Positions 2,665-57,519 of a stretch of DNA of 64,000 nucleotides are shown here, one piece after another. The DNA comes from a virus (Duplodnaviria > Caudoviricetes): IMG/VR virus record IMGVR_UViG_3300024346_000006. One strand, written 5' to 3'. The notes beneath the pieces are model-generated. The model did no database searches and was not told the origin of the DNA. It was given only the letters and a program-made list of their open reading frames with translations. Positions within the stretch are counted from its first letter, which is position 1. Each line of letters opens with the position of its first letter. The position numbers were made by a program, and so were the translations under genes.

Positions 2665-5600
2665 TTAACTTCCTAATGTCGATCCAGGCGCTTTACCAGG
2701 CGTTACATCACTATATCTAATACTAGAACCAGTAACTTGCATAAACACTCTCATACCATTTCCATTTGGTAATGTTGCAGACATTCCCTCATACTTTCTG
2801 GCATTTTTTCTCCAAATATATTTAACCCCATCAGGGCCTTCATGTCCTGCATATCTTGTAACTTCGGCAGGAGAAGTTGAAGAAATTGCGGCAGGAACAA
2901 AAGAACCGCCTTTAAACTCTTCGTTTAATCCATCCGAATCATCATATTTGTTTATTTCTACATGTCCCGACTGAGTTGAGAAATCTGCAGAAGAAATACA
3001 AAGAATATCAAGTTCACTTTGTGGATAATAGAATCTTTGAGTTGTTATCTGAGTTGGGAACGAGAAAACAAAATTTCTATCTTGTGTGATAGAAAGTTGT
3101 TCCATCGGATTGATAACAGCATGAGAATCGATTTCGTGCATTGTTGCAGAAACGTGGAAATCCCATGGTTTCAATACATCTTGTTCTCTAACAACAAATC
3201 TATTGATTGTTTTTACTTCATTCATATTTCTTTCTGGGAAATCTCTGTCCTCTGGAATAGTTATGATGTATGCACTCTGAGCAGGATTTGAAGTAACATA
3301 ATTTATCAAAGAAATTGTCAATTCCGAACCCGCCCTTGGAGCAACTTTGAAATAAAATGTATGATTGAAGAAATCGTATATATATTCATTTCTCAAAGTA
3401 TTTGGTGAGGAGAATACAGGATCCCCTGGCAACTTATTTTGCAATAGATAATTACTTGTTGTCGTAACTGCTTGTGCATTAGTCAAACTAAAAGTTGGTT
3501 TTGTTGGATTTGCCGCATGTTGCGAGAAAAAGTTTCTTCCAGTTGAAGTATTTGAAGTTCCCGAATTAATTGCATATGGAGAGGTAAGTGAAATCACATT
3601 ATTATCCCACTCAACACTTGTACCATCTACAGATGGAAACTTAAAGTCTGCACCAAGTGCGTCAACTCCTGCAGCATCTAGAGATTCAACAAATCTCTGA
3701 ACTGTACTTGGGTCACCATTGTTAACCCAATCTTCATATGTCAAAATATATGCGCCGTTATCTCTAATTACCTCAACATCATCTAGTGCAACAACCAAAG
3801 ATTCAAAAACTTTGTCCATATTCCCAACAGGCGAACCAAATAGAATATCAAGCAATGCAGAATCCGCTTCTTTATAATCAACCAAACCAACAGATTCTGT
3901 TACAGTAGGAACACCTGTTCCACTTTGAGATGCATTTCTAAATGTAGACATTCTTTCAATAATGTTTTGCGGAAACGCAACATTTTCGGAGAATGAAATT
4001 CCTGCAGTGTTTGCAAGAACATAATTAGCTGAAATAGGAGTGGTTGCAGTTAACAGAGAACCACTTCTGTCATAATGTTCTAATACCGTAGTTGTAGTTT
4101 GTCCTGCTGTTGTAACTTGTTCAAGTGCAGCGGGAGAAGCAGATGCCCCAGCACTAAGTGCCACATCTTTTCTTCTTGGCAATGAGTTAAAACCTTGAAT
4201 TTGAAGGTCAAATACTGGGTCAATTACTTGTTGTGCCCATGTCGAACCAGAAAGTCCATCGGTTGGTACAATAATCCACTGTGGTGTCCCTGATTGATTT
4301 ACTGTAAAGTCTACCATAACATCACCAGAACTAGATGTTCCTTCTTCAATAGTTCCCTGTGCAGGGACAATTGGAGGGCCGGGAGCATATACCTGTGCTG
4401 TTCCAATAATATTCGCAGCAGACCAACCACTAACGAGTAGTTCTCCGTTTGATTTGTTATATGAAACAATACGTCCACCACCTGTACTTCCGTCAGACTC
4501 TAAAATATATTTGCCGGGCGTTAAAGTTTCACCAGCAACAGCGCCAGGCGAGTTTGTAATATCCACTTGTAGTTTGTATAGTGTTTGACCCCAAAGACTT
4601 TGATTTTCTGCCATCGCATTACTAGAGAAACCTCTAGTTAAATCTACTCTTATATCAGTGTGATATAATTGTCCAAGTGAGTTTTGTGTATTACCACCAG
4701 TTGCGTATCCAAGTGCAGTAAAGTCAATAGCATTAACAATACCGTTGAATAGGCCACCATCTCTGTTGACATAGATAGTTGGTGCTTCTGATCTGAAAAC
4801 TTGTCCAAGTGAGTTTTGAATTGGGCCAGGTTTACTCAAATCATCCAAATCTTGTGATGCAAAGTATGGTGTTAGACTTGAAACATCTACAGGACGTTTG
4901 CATGGTGAATATACACAATGCACTGGAGATTTTTCTGTAAACTCTGGTTGTCCAGTTGTTTGGTCAACATGTCTCTGTACTACTAACCATGCGTAGTCAT
5001 CGTCTTGATCTACTGATGCATGGTCAAATAAGAAAAGTCCCAAACCATGGTTTGTAACTGTAAGTCTATAAGACATTGGATATGTTGTTGAGATTGAGTC
5101 TTCTACTTGAGTTTTTCTAAACCACTGTGATTTTGACTTACTCATTTGTAAGATTGCGCCTCTGCCGATCGTTGGAGAGGTATACACATCGCACAATTCG
5201 CCGGGCTCTCTATAGACAGGATTTTTAATACCATCACGACCTTGTGGTTGTGAAATCGTAAAGTCATCTTTTAATTGATAAGCAGTTGCAACATTTACTT
5301 TTAAGTATTTTTCATCATCATTCCACTCAAATCTCATTCTCCACTTCTGTGGTTTTCTAACTGCAGAAGGAGAAAGGCTTGATGCAAAACTTAAGTTTGA
5401 GTCTGATAATAAATCGACTCCTTTGTTAGACTCGACTAAGAATCCATTTGTAATTCTTCTCAATGCATCTTTAACGTCTTCTTTATCGTTACTAACTGGA
5501 GTAGGATAAATCAAATCGAATGGTCTTTGGAAGTTATCATTTTCTTGGAATGTAAGCATCCAAGACGTGCCTTCCTCTGTAGTTACCAACTCTTCTTTCT

Positions 5601-9028: not shown

Positions 9029-12000
9029 CTATTTATCTCTAAATATTGAAAGAATTTTTCCAGTTACAAAAGTAACTGGGTGCCATACAGTACACCATAT
9101 TCTTCCCACAATATCGTCTTTTTCTTTTTTACCAATACCTAAATGTCCTGCATAACCATCTCTACTTAAAATATACTTTAAGTGTTGGGTTCTTCTTTGC
9201 GCCAACCATCCACCAGACTTGGTTAAAGTACCACTCTTTCTCATTCCTTTAACCCAAGGCATGAATAAAAAATGATAACCTCTTTGGTGATACCGAGTCA
9301 AATGAGTTTTTGTATGCAATCCCCAAATCTTCATTGCTGTTTTCCAATCATCTAGTTGTGTTTGTCTGTACATTTCAGTACAAACAATCTTATCAGACTG
9401 ACTAGATGTGCCACTACCACCAGAATCACTAATGTTGTCATCTCTTGTTGGGCCGATCATTGCCCCAGGCGCTCCAGTTCCAGTAGAGAACACGCCATCT
9501 GGTTGATCCGATCGTAGACCTTGAATTTCATTATGTGTCATAGGACTATCAAAATATGTTACAGTTCCAGTTGATGGTTCATAGTGAGACATAAATGTTG
9601 GTTCATTATGATTATCATCACTACCACCGCCACCAGAAGTTACTGGAGTTCCATTTCCATCTGTAACAGGACTGCCAGTTCCATCTGTGACCACCATTAT
9701 CGGCCCATCAAATACGGTGTCATTATCACTACCGTTATCCTCAGGCGTCTGTACCGGACTTGTCTGTGCCGGCGGCCGTGACCAAGTTGTTCCAGTTCCA
9801 GTTCCATCACCTAAGAAGAAACAATTAAAGTAAGTTAGGCCACCCTGTACATAGAAGTTACCCACAAGACTAGGTGTAACTCTTAAATCGGTGAAATCAC
9901 CATCAACACCATCATCCATTTCAAGTGTAGTCCAACTGTTACTATTGTTTTCTGTTATCGTTTCACTACCCAATCTTCTTCTGAATATTTTATATAATGT
10001 ATATGTCATTGAGCCTTGGTTGAGACTCTTAGTACATACACCAAGTGCATCTTCTTCACCGTCATTTCTGTAATAACGATACCCATTATAATCTATAGTT
10101 TGATGTCTTTGATCGTCAATATTGAATGACCATGCAGCTCCTTGAGGATTAAACCCAGTACTATCTCCAAATCCGTACCAATTACCAGTACCAAATTCAT
10201 TTTGGACAGTTCCAAATATACCACTTTGATTGCCCTTAATCACCTCAGTTCCGTATTTGATGAATACCTTAGTATTTCCGTCTTGGTCTCTACCTTGTGC
10301 CCAAACTGACGTACCACCTGTAGCGTTCTCATCGCAATTGCCAGAATGAAAATACTCTGGATATTCTCTGGGGCCTAAACTAGAACTTGTAGTTCCAGTA
10401 GTTGTTTGGTGAGGCCTTCCGTCATCTTTGACTCTTGTTGTCATTGATGGCGCCCTGTTACTTTGCAATCCAGTACTTCTTAAAACATAGACATCATCTT
10501 CACTCATTGTAATTGTTTGTGTACTAGCATTCGGGCCAAATACAATTGACGATGGGCCAATTCCACCAGAGCCAATGTTAGTAAATGTCATTGTATTTTC
10601 ATAAGATGCTGATCTAGTAGTATTAAATGTTACTGTACATTTTTTAATTGGCCATGGATCTGGACTTTGAATGTCATTGTCAATATCACTTCTCTTTGCA
10701 CCTGTTACAACATAATCATCTGGCGCATTTACAGGGTCTGTAGATACATTAATACTTGGTAGATATCCAGCTGGTGGACTTGGACTGACGAACGGGCCAG
10801 GCGCTGTTCCACTTTTTTCTAATTTTGCGTAGTGTTCTCCATTTTGACAGAAATATACACGATATTTTTGTGATCCATTTTTCTGCAATTGGTAAGTATG
10901 AACTAAGTAATACTGTTTTCCTTTTCCGAATAAAAGAATTTCTTTTGAAGAAATTGAACCAGTTAGCTCTTGATTTCCTTCACAAGTTACATTTGCAACA
11001 GAGTACATAACAACTGTACCCCTATCATCAATTAGTGCAATGCCAGGCTTTGAGATTTTCGTGTAGTCATTTCCTTTAGAACCAAATACAACAACTACAC
11101 CATCTCCACCATCTCCTGAGTTAGATTCATATGTGCCTTCTTGAGTTTGACTGCCGGGCACCAAATCTAAATATGAAGTCTGATTTGATTGTCCACCTCT
11201 ACCAACTTTAATATCAACAATATCGCCAGGCGATACCATAAAGTCACCAAAGAATCCACTGGCAGCTGCCTGTCCACCAATAGTAGCACTTTTCGATGTA
11301 CTACTGTAATATCTCATACCATGTTGACCAGCTGCACCACCCGATCCATATACTGGATTTGGTTCCGATGGACTTCCATTAGTTGGGAATTCGCTAGCAA
11401 CTGTTGTACCAAAACCATGCCACGAAGAACCACCATCTCCACCATCATTATTAAAGAAATGTAATTCTCCCAATCCTGATGCTTCGAACCAGTAAGTATT
11501 AATTGGGAATTTTTCAACCAATGCACTTACAATATTTGCACCACTTGATGGAAGGTTTGCATAATATGACAATGGAGTACTTCGTAAGTTATCTCTTGTG
11601 TATTTCAAAGAGCTTGCTGGTAGAGTGGATAGAGCATAAGTTCTATTAGTTTCAACTCCACCAGCAACACTAATCAGTTGATTCTTTGTTGGTATAGTTC
11701 CCTGGCCAGGTATTGTAACAGCTGGTTCTGTTACTGTTGACCCAAACTGTGCTGCATATTCGGCAGTACCCACAACATAATTGATACCTTGGAATACTGT
11801 ATAATTTTGTTGACGGAAAAGGTTTCTGTCAATTACATTAGAGTTTCTTCCAACATATTTTTGATAAATTTTATCAATGGTTTCTGTATCTAGTGAAGTT
11901 TCTAATATGAAATTATTCATCGAAATTCCACCAACTCCAGCTGGTTGTGATGTAGTGCCACCATCCGTAACACACCAGTACCACTGTTCTGGGTCAGAAG

Positions 12001-50870: not shown

Positions 50871-51218
50871 TTAGAATGAAAAACTAAGTCCCACTTTTGC
50901 ATCTTCATATTCAAGCTTTTCGCTCGCTTCAATATTACTGAAAAGTGAAAGTTGTGGAGACATTGCATATGAAACACCCAAGTTAACACCATCAAAATTA
51001 ATTATATCTGATGCTACATTAGAATCATATGAGAAGTCTGCCCATGGACGCAAAACAAATCCTTGTGGAAGTGCCATTGTATATCCTAATTCAGATGTGA
51101 AATTTTCATTTTCTACACTGTACTCAATTTGTCCTTCTACATAACCTCTATTGCCTTCTGCCATTGCAGACGAACATAAAAAAACCGCCGAAGCGGCTCC
51201 GAAAAAAAACTTTGTCAT
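50871..51218 (-). CDS. Small outer-membrane beta-strand (porin-like) protein with signal peptide
   Basis: Signal peptide ending AMA/EG; alternating beta pattern; C-terminal VGLSFSF. Confidence 0.65.
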   Translation of the reverse strand: MTKFFFGAASAVFLCSSAMAEGNRGYVEGQIEYSVENENFTSELGYTMALPQGFVLRPWADFSYDSNVASDIINFDGVNLGVSYAMSPQLSLFSNIEASEKLEYEDAKVGLSFSF

Positions 51219-51244
51219 TTATTAAATCCTTTTACTATGACTGT

Positions 51245-51578
51245 GGGCCCGTTTAGTAACAAGGTGGAACCCATACCCCGCTGATCATGCTGCTAGAGCA
51301 AACTCAGGTGCAAAGTTATCGTTTGCGTTTAGTTTTGTTTGACCGAATATCGTAGGTCAACACGGTAATCTACTCTCATCTCTACACACCTGTCGATCCT
51401 ATTTCGCCCCCATCATAAACACACTACTTGCAGTATCTTCCTCTGCGTAACCTCGTTGGAGGTAACTTAGTTTATTCGTAGCCTTGCCACTTCTAGTTCA
51501 AAGCAGTGTGTTTATGGTGGAGGCGTTGGGTACTGCCCCCAAGTCCAGTATGCATGTTGAATCGTATCAACAATTACA
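51245..51578 (-). ncRNA. ssrA: Circularly permuted two-piece tmRNA: acceptor piece ~51578-51515, intervening 51514-51412, coding piece 51411-~51245, tag 51326-51285 = ANDNFAPEFALAA*
   Basis: GGGGGCGAAATAGGATCGAC 5' end; GGCAGTA T-loop; CGCCTCCACCA 3' end with G3:U70; helix 2 pairs between the pieces; tag ends ALAA. Confidence 0.93.
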
Positions 51579-51582
51579 AGTT

Positions 51583-51613
51583 TATTTATACACTATTCTT
51601 TTCTTTTTGTCAA
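51583..51613 (-). promoter_or_regulatory. Overlapping sigma70-type and T4 late promoter for tmRNA
   Basis: TTGACA-N17-TATAAA, where the -10 is part of an exact TATAAATA. Confidence 0.8.
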
Positions 51614-55478: not shown

Positions 55479-55554
55479 TGGTGCCGCCAGGGAGTCTCGA
55501 ACTCCCGACCTGATGCTTACAAGGCAACTGCTCTTCCAGCTGAGCTACAGCGGC
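55479..55554 (-). tRNA. tRNA-Thr(UGU)
   Basis: GCCGCTG/TGGCGGC stem, CTTGTAA anticodon loop, TTCGAGA T-loop, encoded CCA. Confidence 0.95.
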
Positions 55555-55748
55555 GAATTTTCTATTTCATTTTCTCGTTTTTTAATCCAGTCCTTTAATT
55601 CACAAACCCTTCCAACATACATCATATATGCAGCCTGCCATTCTGGTTCTCCAGTAAGAGCCCACTGTTGACTGCACTGATCGGCATTTTGGACTAAATT
55701 TTTAATTATATTCTGGTACTTGTCTCTAAATCCAAGTGACATAAACAT
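55545..55748 (-). CDS. Hypothetical protein
   Basis: ORF track; stop overlaps the tRNA-Thr 5' end. Confidence 0.6.
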   Translation of the reverse strand: MFMSLGFRDKYQNIIKNLVQNADQCSQQWALTGEPEWQAAYMMYVGRVCELKDWIKKRENEIENSPL

Positions 55749-55753
55749 TCCTA

Positions 55754-55918
55754 CTATTTTAAAGTCAACTCCAACTTGATTAGAATGGGTTTGTCATCAA
55801 TTATCATTGCAGCGTATGTATCACCACTTTGGATTTGTAAATCTTTTGGAGACTTACTACTATCTAAAAGTATGTTTCCTGCAACATCTATATCAAAATT
55901 TTTCTTTATATTTTCCAT
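55754..55918 (-). CDS. Hypothetical protein (54 aa, MENIKKNFDID)
   Basis: Trimmed from track ORF 55754-56008, whose 5' part overlaps the SET gene. Confidence 0.5.
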   Translation of the reverse strand: MENIKKNFDIDVAGNILLDSSKSPKDLQIQSGDTYAAMIIDDKPILIKLELTLK

Positions 55919-55940
55919 CCTCATAATATATATACTTCCT

Positions 55941-56222
55941 TTAAATCCGATAAAAAGTATATTGACATGTAAGCTCTTCGCCAGGCCAAATATCTCTAAT
56001 TGCAACAAGAAAATACCTACTGTCTCTTTGAACCTTTATGATATTTGGTTCATCAGAGTGATTATAAAAAGCACCCAATGGGGTTCTTTGCAAAGTTTCT
56101 CCCCAATAAAAATGTGACAGGCCGATTTCAGTTCCTTCTTTAATCTGATTGACGCACCAAAGTCCTAGTCCATGTATTCCTGATTTTTTTATTGTTACTT
56201 CTTCTGGTAGAGGTTTATACAT
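55941..56222 (-). CDS. SET-domain protein
   Basis: KSGIHGLGLW, FYNHSDEPN, AIRDIWPGEELTCQY. Confidence 0.9.
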   Translation of the reverse strand: MYKPLPEEVTIKKSGIHGLGLWCVNQIKEGTEIGLSHFYWGETLQRTPLGAFYNHSDEPNIIKVQRDSRYFLVAIRDIWPGEELTCQYTFYRI

Positions 56223-56234
56223 TTCGTATCCTTA

Positions 56235-56777
56235 CTATGGGTTGCCGTCTGATTTTGGTACATCAAACACGAAAGTTATTCTTTCGACACCACCTACATT
56301 ATGTGCCTGATGGTATTTTTTATTATCAAACCAGAAGAAGGTGCCAGGCTTAATAGTATGCCACTCACCATCAACTTCATAATCATATTCACCCTGCAAG
56401 GAAAGATGATACCTATCTCTAGTTAAGTAATAAGTTCCTTCGTCTATATGTTTACCTACCCACTCATCAACCCCCAACTTAAAAAAGGCGGCTCTTGATA
56501 ATTGTGTTATTCCTTGACTTCTCAACCATTTAGAAACTTCATCATATTTATCATAGAGTTCAGTCTTTTGAGTCTTTTCTGTATTCTTTGGACTTTCTCC
56601 TGGCTTTACAACTGCCATGACTAGAGGCAAAAATCCATATGGGTCTAAATCGCCTCCAACATCTTTTCCATCTGCATTTAAATTATTAACATATTTCCAG
56701 TCATCTTGGTTATCAAGAACCTGTTGTAATATCTTACTCACATCTAAGTTCTTTGCAATAAATCTAAAATTACTCAA
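56235..56777 (-). CDS. Asp/Asn beta-hydroxylase-like 2OG-Fe(II) oxygenase
   Basis: HIDEGTYY..RYHLSLQG, WFDNKKYHQAHN..RITFVFD; TTG start. Confidence 0.8.
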   Translation of the reverse strand: MSNFRFIAKNLDVSKILQQVLDNQDDWKYVNNLNADGKDVGGDLDPYGFLPLVMAVVKPGESPKNTEKTQKTELYDKYDEVSKWLRSQGITQLSRAAFFKLGVDEWVGKHIDEGTYYLTRDRYHLSLQGEYDYEVDGEWHTIKPGTFFWFDNKKYHQAHNVGGVERITFVFDVPKSDGNP

Positions 56778-56797
56778 ATAATATCCTACTCATTGTT

Positions 56798-56873
56798 TGG
56801 CTCCCAGAGAGGGGTTCGAACCCCCGACCCAATGATTAACAGTCATTTGCTCTACCAACTGAGCTATCTGGGA
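56798..56873 (-). tRNA. tRNA-Asn(GUU)
   Basis: TCCCAGA/TCTGGGA stem, CTGTTAA loop, encoded CCA. Confidence 0.95.
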
Positions 56874-56887
56874 ATAATCCTCTAAAT

Positions 56888-56964
56888 TGGTCGGAGTTAG
56901 AGGATTCGAACCTCTGACCCTCTGCTCCCAAAGCAGATGCGCTACCAGACTGCGCCAAACTCCG
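56888..56964 (-). tRNA. tRNA-Pro(UGG)
   Basis: CGGAGTT/AACTCCG stem, TTTGGGA loop, encoded CCA. Confidence 0.95.
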
Positions 56965-56993
56965 TTTATAATCCGCCGCCATGGATTTTTATT

Positions 56994-57068
56994 TGGAGCG
57001 GGTAGTCAGAATCGAACTGACATCAAAAGGTTGGAAACCTCTTATAATAACCATTATACGATACCCGC
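56994..57068 (-). tRNA. tRNA-Gly(UCC)
   Basis: GCGGGTA/TACCCGC stem, TTTCCAA loop, encoded CCA. Confidence 0.93.
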
Positions 57069-57272
57069 CTAAACTTCAACATCAATGTTACCAACTGGTT
57101 CGACTATTCTCATCTTTCCAGTTCTATCATATGTTCTATAAACTTCTTCAACTCTAATAGAGCCTCCAAAATCTTTGTGTGTTACTACAATGTTATGAAT
57201 TTTATCACCGACATTAAGTTGTCTAACATACTCACTCACAATTCTTACTGGTGGTACTGGTGATACTTGCAT
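57069..57272 (-). CDS. Hypothetical protein inside the tRNA cluster
   Basis: ORF track; GAG RBS. Confidence 0.6.
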   Translation of the reverse strand: MQVSPVPPVRIVSEYVRQLNVGDKIHNIVVTHKDFGGSIRVEEVYRTYDRTGKMRIVEPVGNIDVEV

Positions 57273-57293
57273 TACAGTAACTCTAAATAAAAA

Positions 57294-57380
57294 GGACAGT
57301 AGGTGTTGATGTTCACCGCAGTTTGAGGGGTTGCAGGCCGCTTTATTTTCTTGTACATTAGTCGCCTCTTCCTACTGTCC
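57294..57380 (-). ncRNA. Candidate structured small RNA
   Basis: Perfect 10-bp terminal stem GGACAGTAGG/CCTACTGTCC followed by T5; GC-richer than flanks. Confidence 0.45.
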
Positions 57381-57442
57381 GCCCCTGTTTAATCTTGTGT
57401 CTTATATTTAGTGTCGTTTTCAGGCACTCACTCGACATTAAT

Positions 57443-57519
57443 TGGCCTGCCCTGTAGGATTCGAACCTACGACCCACAGCTTAGAAGGCTGTTGCTCTAT
57501 CCAGCTGAGCTAAGGGCAG
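57443..57519 (-). tRNA. tRNA-Arg(UCU)
   Basis: CTGCCCT/AGGGCAG stem, CTTCTAA loop, encoded CCA. Confidence 0.95.

Follow-up and report, generated by a model that had tools for sequence, protein, structure and literature searches.

The minus strand of a 64,000-nt stretch of viral DNA (IMG/VR record IMGVR_UViG_3300024346_000006; the whole stretch is called the window here) carries a circularly permuted gene for transfer-messenger RNA (tmRNA), in which a 103-nt intervening sequence (IVS) separates the two mature pieces. ARAGORN calls the gene at 51194-51608 with the tag ANDNFAPEFALAA, and two Rfam models match it at full length (RF04321, 125.3 bits; RF01849, 119 bits), which classifies it as a circularly permuted, alpha-type tmRNA. 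In particular, an acceptor piece with the T arm and the CCA end lies upstream of a coding piece that completes the acceptor stem, and the tag frame has an alanine codon first and a hydrophobic ..LAA tail. The original prediction, made from the letters of the window, was that the IVS folds into a multi-arm RNA, which tmRNA processing would release as a passenger small RNA with a role of its own. The analysis presented here finds that this IVS is more strongly constrained than the tmRNA that it interrupts, that its fold is backed by covariation, and that it is shared with tRNA arrays and with a free-standing gene.

The extent claimed for the IVS agrees with a reading of the sequence, in which the end of the CCA and the first G of the coding piece enclose exactly 103 nt (Table 1). 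The proposed fold, a 14-bp closing stem with one G.U pair around three hairpins (here A, B and C), is identical to both the minimum-energy and the centroid structures calculated with ViennaRNA. Its energy of -32.9 kcal/mol compares with -18.6 +/- 2.9 kcal/mol in 200 shuffled sequences (z = -4.94), none of which folds as well, and the fold persists within the 371-nt precursor. The closing stem had also been said to bring the CCA end next to the RNase P site; it begins at the first base past the CCA and ends 4 nt before that site, and the leader UGAU that fills the gap is invariant in the alignment of the tmRNA-borne relatives of the IVS. In the fold of the precursor, the acceptor stem, the pairing of ACCA with this leader and the closing stem make up a nearly continuous helix of ~25 bp, which could serve as a site for a double-strand nuclease.

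The 5′ end of the coding piece is conserved in alpha-type tmRNAs, and a scan of viral contigs for it yielded 120 loci, two of which contain an IVS resembling that of the window. This set of module copies was enlarged with a 15-base motif from junction J1 and then with a pattern from the other half of the module, which returned the same set and six more loci; one metagenome scan contributed 64 further loci. R1, a covariance model trained on 19 distinct IVSs, recognizes 85 sites at 55-124 bits (50 distinct sequences), all of them on contigs of uncultured aquatic phages or from metagenomes. The members share one architecture, with a closing stem of 10-14 bp and three hairpins, of which hairpin B runs straight into hairpin C, and hairpin C into the 3′ strand of the stem. 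The window IVS has this architecture, matches R1 over its full length at 117.2 bits, and contains every part of the family core (UGAACUAG..AAGUGG, ACUAAGUU and the loop GGNRGAU).

This structured RNA family is new. There is no matching family in Rfam; a search of the window at gathering score yields only the tmRNA and tRNAs, and a search with the IVS and two relatives at E values up to 10 yields only unrelated noise. Known ribozymes, riboswitches, Y RNA/YrlA and tRNA-like families were considered as identities and set aside, as none was matched by the three family members at that threshold. Further, the module is absent from 185,579 species genomes of cellular organisms scanned with two independent patterns, and looser patterns for diverged members or extra free-standing copies retrieve only one locus already in the collection (L188, described below) and four chance matches.

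Across the 50 distinct sequences, 97.0% of 1426 pair cells are standard-paired, versus 27-46% when the partners are slid by one to three columns. Compensatory changes occur in 21 of the 29 base pairs, and the observed values are reached by none of 500 shuffles. In the closing stem, every one of the 13 modelled pairs has such changes, as do four pairs of hairpin B and three of the four modelled pairs of hairpin C, whose loop-closing position switches between A.A and G-C; hairpin A has a single covarying pair (C-G to U-A) and is otherwise invariant. The inner arms, on whose conservation the original prediction was staked, are therefore conserved, and compensatory changes maintain all four helices. 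Moreover, ~30 unpaired positions are invariant, and these lie in J1, at the end of J2, at the base of hairpin A and of hairpin B, and in the loop of hairpin C. Paired cells hold 81 G.U and 12 A.C combinations; this excess indicates that the structure is selected in the RNA of this strand, and it rules out a palindrome acting at the DNA level. A coding reading of the module is likewise ruled out, as single-base insertions and deletions in the hairpin loops keep no frame. The segments J1 + hairpin A and J2 + hairpin B follow one common pattern (ACUA, (GA), AGU, a stem with a non-Watson-Crick third pair, UAC), which looks, from the sequences compared, like two related binding sites; two similar half-sites suggest a dimer or two copies.

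Table 1. Coordinates of the IVS, its structural elements, the carrier tmRNA gene and the neighbouring tRNA cluster in the window.
Feature	Position	Strand	Description	Basis
Intervening segment (IVS)	51412-51514	minus	103 nt; member of the ~105-nt four-way-junction RNA family	fold; R1, 117.2 bits, E 4e-26; covariation
Closing stem, 5′ strand	51501-51514	minus	pairs with 51429-51416; 14 bp, one G.U; starts right after CCA	
Junction J1	51491-51500	minus	unpaired; invariant UGAACUAG..AAG	49 distinct sequences
Hairpin A	51478-51490	minus	5 bp including a conserved G.U; 3-nt loop	100% paired in family
Junction J2	51467-51477	minus	unpaired; ends with invariant ACUAA, which continues into hairpin B (ACUAAGUU)	
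Hairpin B	51447-51466	minus	8 bp, with a conserved U.U mismatch; loop length and sequence vary	
Hairpin C	51430-51446	minus	4-5 bp; loop core GGNRGAU; no linker to hairpin B or closing stem	
Closing stem, 3′ strand	51416-51429	minus		fold; family covariation
Leader UGAU	51412-51415	minus	4 nt, just before the RNase P site; can pair with ACCA at 3 of 4 positions	
Promoter of tmRNA precursor	51583-51613	minus	-35 TTGACA at 51613-51608; 17-nt spacer; TATAAATA at 51590-51583	read from sequence
Acceptor piece	51515-51577	minus	3′ half of tRNA-like domain; alpha-type T arm; acceptor 3′ strand; encoded CCA ending at 51515	Rfam, ARAGORN
Coding piece	51242-51411	minus	starts at G51411; acceptor 5′ strand; D-loop analogue; tag frame 51326-51285	ARAGORN, Rfam
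Terminator-like hairpin	51181-51200	minus	intrinsic hairpin and T run; end of precursor	
tRNA cluster	55479-57519	minus	five genes (Thr, Asn, Pro, Gly, Arg); same strand as tmRNA	ARAGORN

The module is also conserved above the gene that carries it. Over 105 pairs of carriers, mean identity reaches 0.81 in the IVS, as against 0.73 in the acceptor piece and 0.66 over the first 130 nt of the coding piece, and the identity of the IVS exceeds that of both flanks in 82 of these pairs. Near-identical IVSs occur in alpha-type and canonical-T-loop tmRNAs alike. Further, two loci with 100% identical mature flanks (60 + 130 nt), on contigs that are 90% identical over 4.5 kb, have unrelated 106-nt IVSs (L038 and L027), and a second pair has the same pattern of identical mature flanks around unrelated IVSs (L174 and L042), which implies that the IVS behaves as a swappable cassette. 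Among 107 distinct phage alpha-type tmRNAs, the length of the IVS varies from 3 to ~500 nt, nearly always with a related closing stem, and the cargo consists of plain hairpins of at most 45 nt (30 cases), inserts with small open reading frames (ORFs) led by a ribosome-binding site (at least 23) and other inserts (54). For comparison, the original prediction put the IVS of Caulobacter at only ~14 nt. The module is present in two of the 107 phage tmRNAs (~2%).

The same module occurs outside tmRNA genes. At five loci (L189-L193), it lies between tRNA-Lys(UUU) and tRNA-Ile(GAU) on the strand of the tRNAs, 5 nt after the first and ~8 nt before the second, and several metagenome contigs have it in the tRNA-Lys/tRNA-Ile spacer or ahead of another tRNA. 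The closing stem of these copies has the same length as that of the tmRNA-borne copies and a different sequence; both contexts place the module between an upstream tRNA-type 3′ end and a downstream RNase P site. A free-standing copy (L188, 3472-3579) is located directly behind a sigma-70 promoter that matches at 11 of 12 positions, placed such that transcription is predicted to start at the first bases of the stem, and is followed by a short U run and a small ORF. The presence of the module in tRNA arrays and behind a promoter indicates that it is autonomous and not specific to tmRNA. Overall, the idea of a passenger RNA is strengthened by the conservation of the IVS above its flanks, by the exchange of IVSs between identical flanks and by the occurrence outside tmRNA genes.

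Taken together, the fold, the covariation, the conservation above the carrier, the cassette exchange and the three genomic contexts form the basis on which the IVS is read as one copy of a small RNA gene that is autonomous and restricted to phages; the ends of its product would be made by RNase P and by CCA-end maturation, and the product would act in trans. This reading is assigned a probability of roughly 0.6. The precursor would be transcribed from the strong promoter upstream of the acceptor piece and would end at the terminator-like hairpin (Table 1). The two tmRNA pieces would form the tRNA-like domain and the IVS would fold on itself, with the 14-bp stem setting the CCA end beside the RNase P site. 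An RNase P cut 5′ of G51411 would create the 3′ end of the module (51412), and its 5′ end (~51514) would arise when host endo- and exonucleases mature the CCA end at 51515. Permuted tmRNA precursors are processed by tRNA-processing enzymes, with removal of the intervening segment (PMC11915505), and the two cleavages proposed here are extrapolated from that processing and from that of tRNA operons. The freed RNA of ~103 nt is predicted to withstand 3′ exonucleases and to accumulate, because the stem would hold both of its ends and leave a tail of only 4 nt. The action in trans would then fall to the invariant junctions and loop, most probably through protein binding.

Several observations weigh against this reading. 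No isolated phage carries the module (BLAST), no partner protein or target has been found for it, and the free-standing context is known from one contig (L188). The inner 71 nt by themselves reach a z of -1.41, with 17 of 200 shuffles folding equally well; since the closing stem supplies most of the fold signal, the inner arms do not exceed chance in one sequence, and it is the comparison of sequences that establishes them. The use of exact module motifs in the collection inflates the apparent invariance of those motifs, although the independent pattern from the other half of the module recovered the same set and its six additional loci. Moreover, a stem flush with the CCA might hinder 3′ trimming as readily as aid it. 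A search of the window for complementarity to the invariant segments returned only the antisense strand of the module itself; any shorter matches would be expected by chance.

The function in trans could be to capture SmpB, as a mimic of the tRNA-like domain without its CCA, or to serve as a decoy for another host factor. In its most specific version, the module is a miniature of the tRNA-like domain in standard order that lacks the CCA and binds SmpB or another tmRNA factor as a decoy or loading aid; the closing stem then corresponds to the acceptor stem, J1 to the D-loop analogue and hairpin C to the T arm. J1 is positioned just 3′ of the 5′ strand of the helix, as the D-loop analogue is, and its anchored match to the carrier tmRNAs averages 8.3 of 14 positions, a level reached by only 0.7% of all module windows; however, GGAUCGAC, the most conserved part of the D-loop analogue, is absent from J1. 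Hairpin C has the geometry of a T arm (a 5-bp stem and a 7-nt loop, abutting the 3′ strand of the helix without a linker), and its loop (GGCGGAU and variants) matches the alpha-type T loop GGCGGUA at up to five of seven positions, but its type is independent of the type of T loop in the carrier. A precedent exists in the coding-less mini-tmRNA of mycobacteriophage DS6A, a reported inhibitor of host tmRNA (PMC11915505), whereas there is no obvious logic in making one decoy per tmRNA. Because the likeness was noticed post hoc, over short segments, and because the Rfam tmRNA and tRNA models find nothing on the module at E values up to 10, this version is considered improbable. A tRNA proper was also rejected as the identity of the IVS: ARAGORN calls none in the window IVS or in 77 IVSs scanned singly, the Rfam tRNA model has no match at E values up to 10, and the tRNA likeness of the module is limited to a cloverleaf-like branching order.

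It is also unlikely that the module is a neutral or selfish cassette, carried in a slot that tolerates any insert keeping the stem, spread by recombination at the tmRNA and tRNA flanks of co-infecting phages without benefit to the phage, and structured only to spare processing. The high diversity of cargo in the slot, the unrelated IVSs between identical mature flanks and the near-identical modules in very different tmRNAs would all be consistent with such a cassette. However, sparing processing would need the closing stem only, so the maintenance of ~30 invariant unpaired bases and three compensated inner helices, in copies whose closing-stem sequences differ, argues against it; in addition, the module encodes no mobility function and one copy has its own promoter.

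The least probable alternative is a cis-acting element that aids processing or folding, or that senses a ligand or protein, and thereby controls how the downstream tmRNA coding piece or tRNA matures or how a downstream ORF is translated (L188): the module is always just 5′ of an RNase P site or, at L188, of a ribosome-binding site, its invariant junction core is typical of aptamers, the ~25-bp precursor helix could gate cleavage, and a glutamine riboswitch adjoins the tmRNA in phage Melnitz (PMC9004378), but only two of the 107 tmRNAs have the module, a plain hairpin is enough for most of them to mature and the module is missing from most tRNA spacers, which indicates that it is not needed for processing, while the genes downstream are unrelated (tmRNA, tRNA-Ile, other tRNAs and a small ORF) and no Rfam riboswitch matches. 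Both the neutral cassette and the cis-acting element are ranked below a trans-acting RNA, since the inner core does not vary between unrelated contexts and since most tmRNAs, like most tRNA spacers, function without the module.

As a putative trans-acting RNA that would be released by tRNA-type processing, the module can be compared with several known systems. The species 1 and species 2 RNAs of phage T4 (rnaC and rnaD) are likewise small, structured, non-tRNA RNAs of a T4-type phage, positioned head to tail with tRNA genes (70908-71171 in the T4 record, directly after tRNA-Arg) and released by tRNA-processing enzymes. The module is similarly a non-tRNA RNA within a phage tRNA transcription unit, on the same strand as tRNA-Lys and tRNA-Ile with 5-8 nt on each side, and is predicted to be stable. 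However, rnaC has a canonical T arm, unlike the module family, and to our knowledge the T4 RNAs do not occur inside a tmRNA gene or as exchangeable cassettes. Homology to them was examined and rejected; R1, applied to T4 69000-75000 with filters off, gives a best score of 10.5 bits (E = 0.33), which does not fall on rnaC or rnaD. The family offers a concrete, testable case of phages using tRNA-type processing for additional small RNAs, a question that dates from the discovery of the species 1 and 2 RNAs of T4, and its model supplies a defined RNA of ~105 nt for pull-down and binding work.

The 3′ external transcribed spacer of the E. coli glyW-cysT-leuZ operon is a sponge for small RNAs, and therefore a by-product of tRNA processing with a role in trans, as is proposed for the module. 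E. coli spacers of this kind are host-encoded, short and little structured, and pair with small RNAs, whereas the module is a closed four-way junction. In the processing stems of bacterial rRNA operons, a long-range helix formed by both flanks encloses the released RNA, and cleavage by RNase III is documented; the enclosing helix is alike, but RNase P and CCA-end maturation are the simpler explanation for the ends of the module. Two-piece, circularly permuted tmRNA genes were reportedly described by Keiler, Shapiro and Williams in 2000. Their IVSs are found at the same site, following the encoded CCA of the acceptor piece and preceding the coding piece, and are treated in the literature as discarded spacer (PMC11915505). 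No description of a conserved, covarying RNA family common to tmRNA IVSs and tRNA arrays appears in the papers that the literature searches found.

The window itself belongs to an uncultured, marine, T4-like myovirus of ~36% G+C with genes for a tail sheath, a baseplate wedge and a hub-lysozyme, and isolated phages include no close relative. The tRNA cluster of the window holds no second copy of the module that R1 recognizes. The tmRNA promoter has a perfect -35 box, and its TATAAATA box fits both a -10 element and a T4-type late box, so that the gene may have early as well as late expression; a consensus scan missed this promoter because its rule requires a T at position 6 of the -10 element. 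The RF04321 match begins at 51577, the position that a start site ~7 nt past the -10 element would have.

The evidence leans slightly towards a broader view, in which the tmRNA and tRNA-array spacers of aquatic T4-like phages would be a shared, stem-bracketed expression platform with swapped small genes, and the cargo described here would be a new, phage-only class of trans-acting RNA. Tandem stem-bracketed cassettes are present within one IVS at L172 (8906-9171) and in four other variants (L164, L199, L212, L217 and L219 are listed), where a conserved, tryptophan-rich ORF of 43 codons with a ribosome-binding site precedes the RNA module and each has its own stem. A single slot with conserved flanks and changing cargo is seen for phage counter-defence genes, too. 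For annotators, these findings are a reason to inspect the interior of tmRNA genes, where small ORFs are found as well, including in the cultured phage Melnitz.

The small ORFs within IVSs (loci L001-L120; at least 23 of 107) have 19-120 codons; several of them form conserved families, and many of these ORFs are hydrophobic. Examples are L039, L053, L062, L097, L109, L020, L060, L018, L054 and L021. With a ribosome-binding site and a small ORF inside the IVS, the tmRNA precursor would double as a messenger. Small ORFs are also located in the spacers of tRNA arrays: at L190 and L208, the spacer after the CCA of the tRNA upstream of the module-preceding tRNA contains a ribosome-binding site and a short ORF rich in lysine and arginine. 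The free-standing module of L188 is directly followed by a very basic ORF of 37 codons with a ribosome-binding site (3594-3707); it was considered as a candidate partner protein and rejected, as it has no homolog at any other locus.

Other cargos appear to be folded RNAs as well. The IVSs of L088 and L114 (78 nt each) represent a second, unrelated structured type with an inner hairpin that is, as judged by eye, fully compensated. The 111-nt IVS of L113 (~11330-11440) has a motif resembling a canonical T arm and a long GC-rich arm, and is tRNA-like by eye; ARAGORN calls no tRNA within it. The 2025 tmRNA database paper mentions just two cases of IVS content, one IVS with a tRNA-Ala gene, called unique, and one with a repetitive element (PMC11915505).

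In the OM43 phage Melnitz (MZ577097), the tmRNA gene contains an IVS of ~142 nt (L259, ~635-776) in which a ribosome-binding site is followed by an ORF that begins with ATG and extends as far as the IVS does; a single tmRNA feature of 453 nt is all that the record annotates. The glutamine riboswitch of this phage is said to control the tmRNA (PMC9004378). Such a riboswitch was considered as the content of the IVS and rejected, since the Melnitz IVS holds the small ORF and the riboswitch is located 3′ of the tmRNA (L259, 956-1004). With this position, neither upstream of the gene nor within its IVS, the riboswitch more likely serves what follows.
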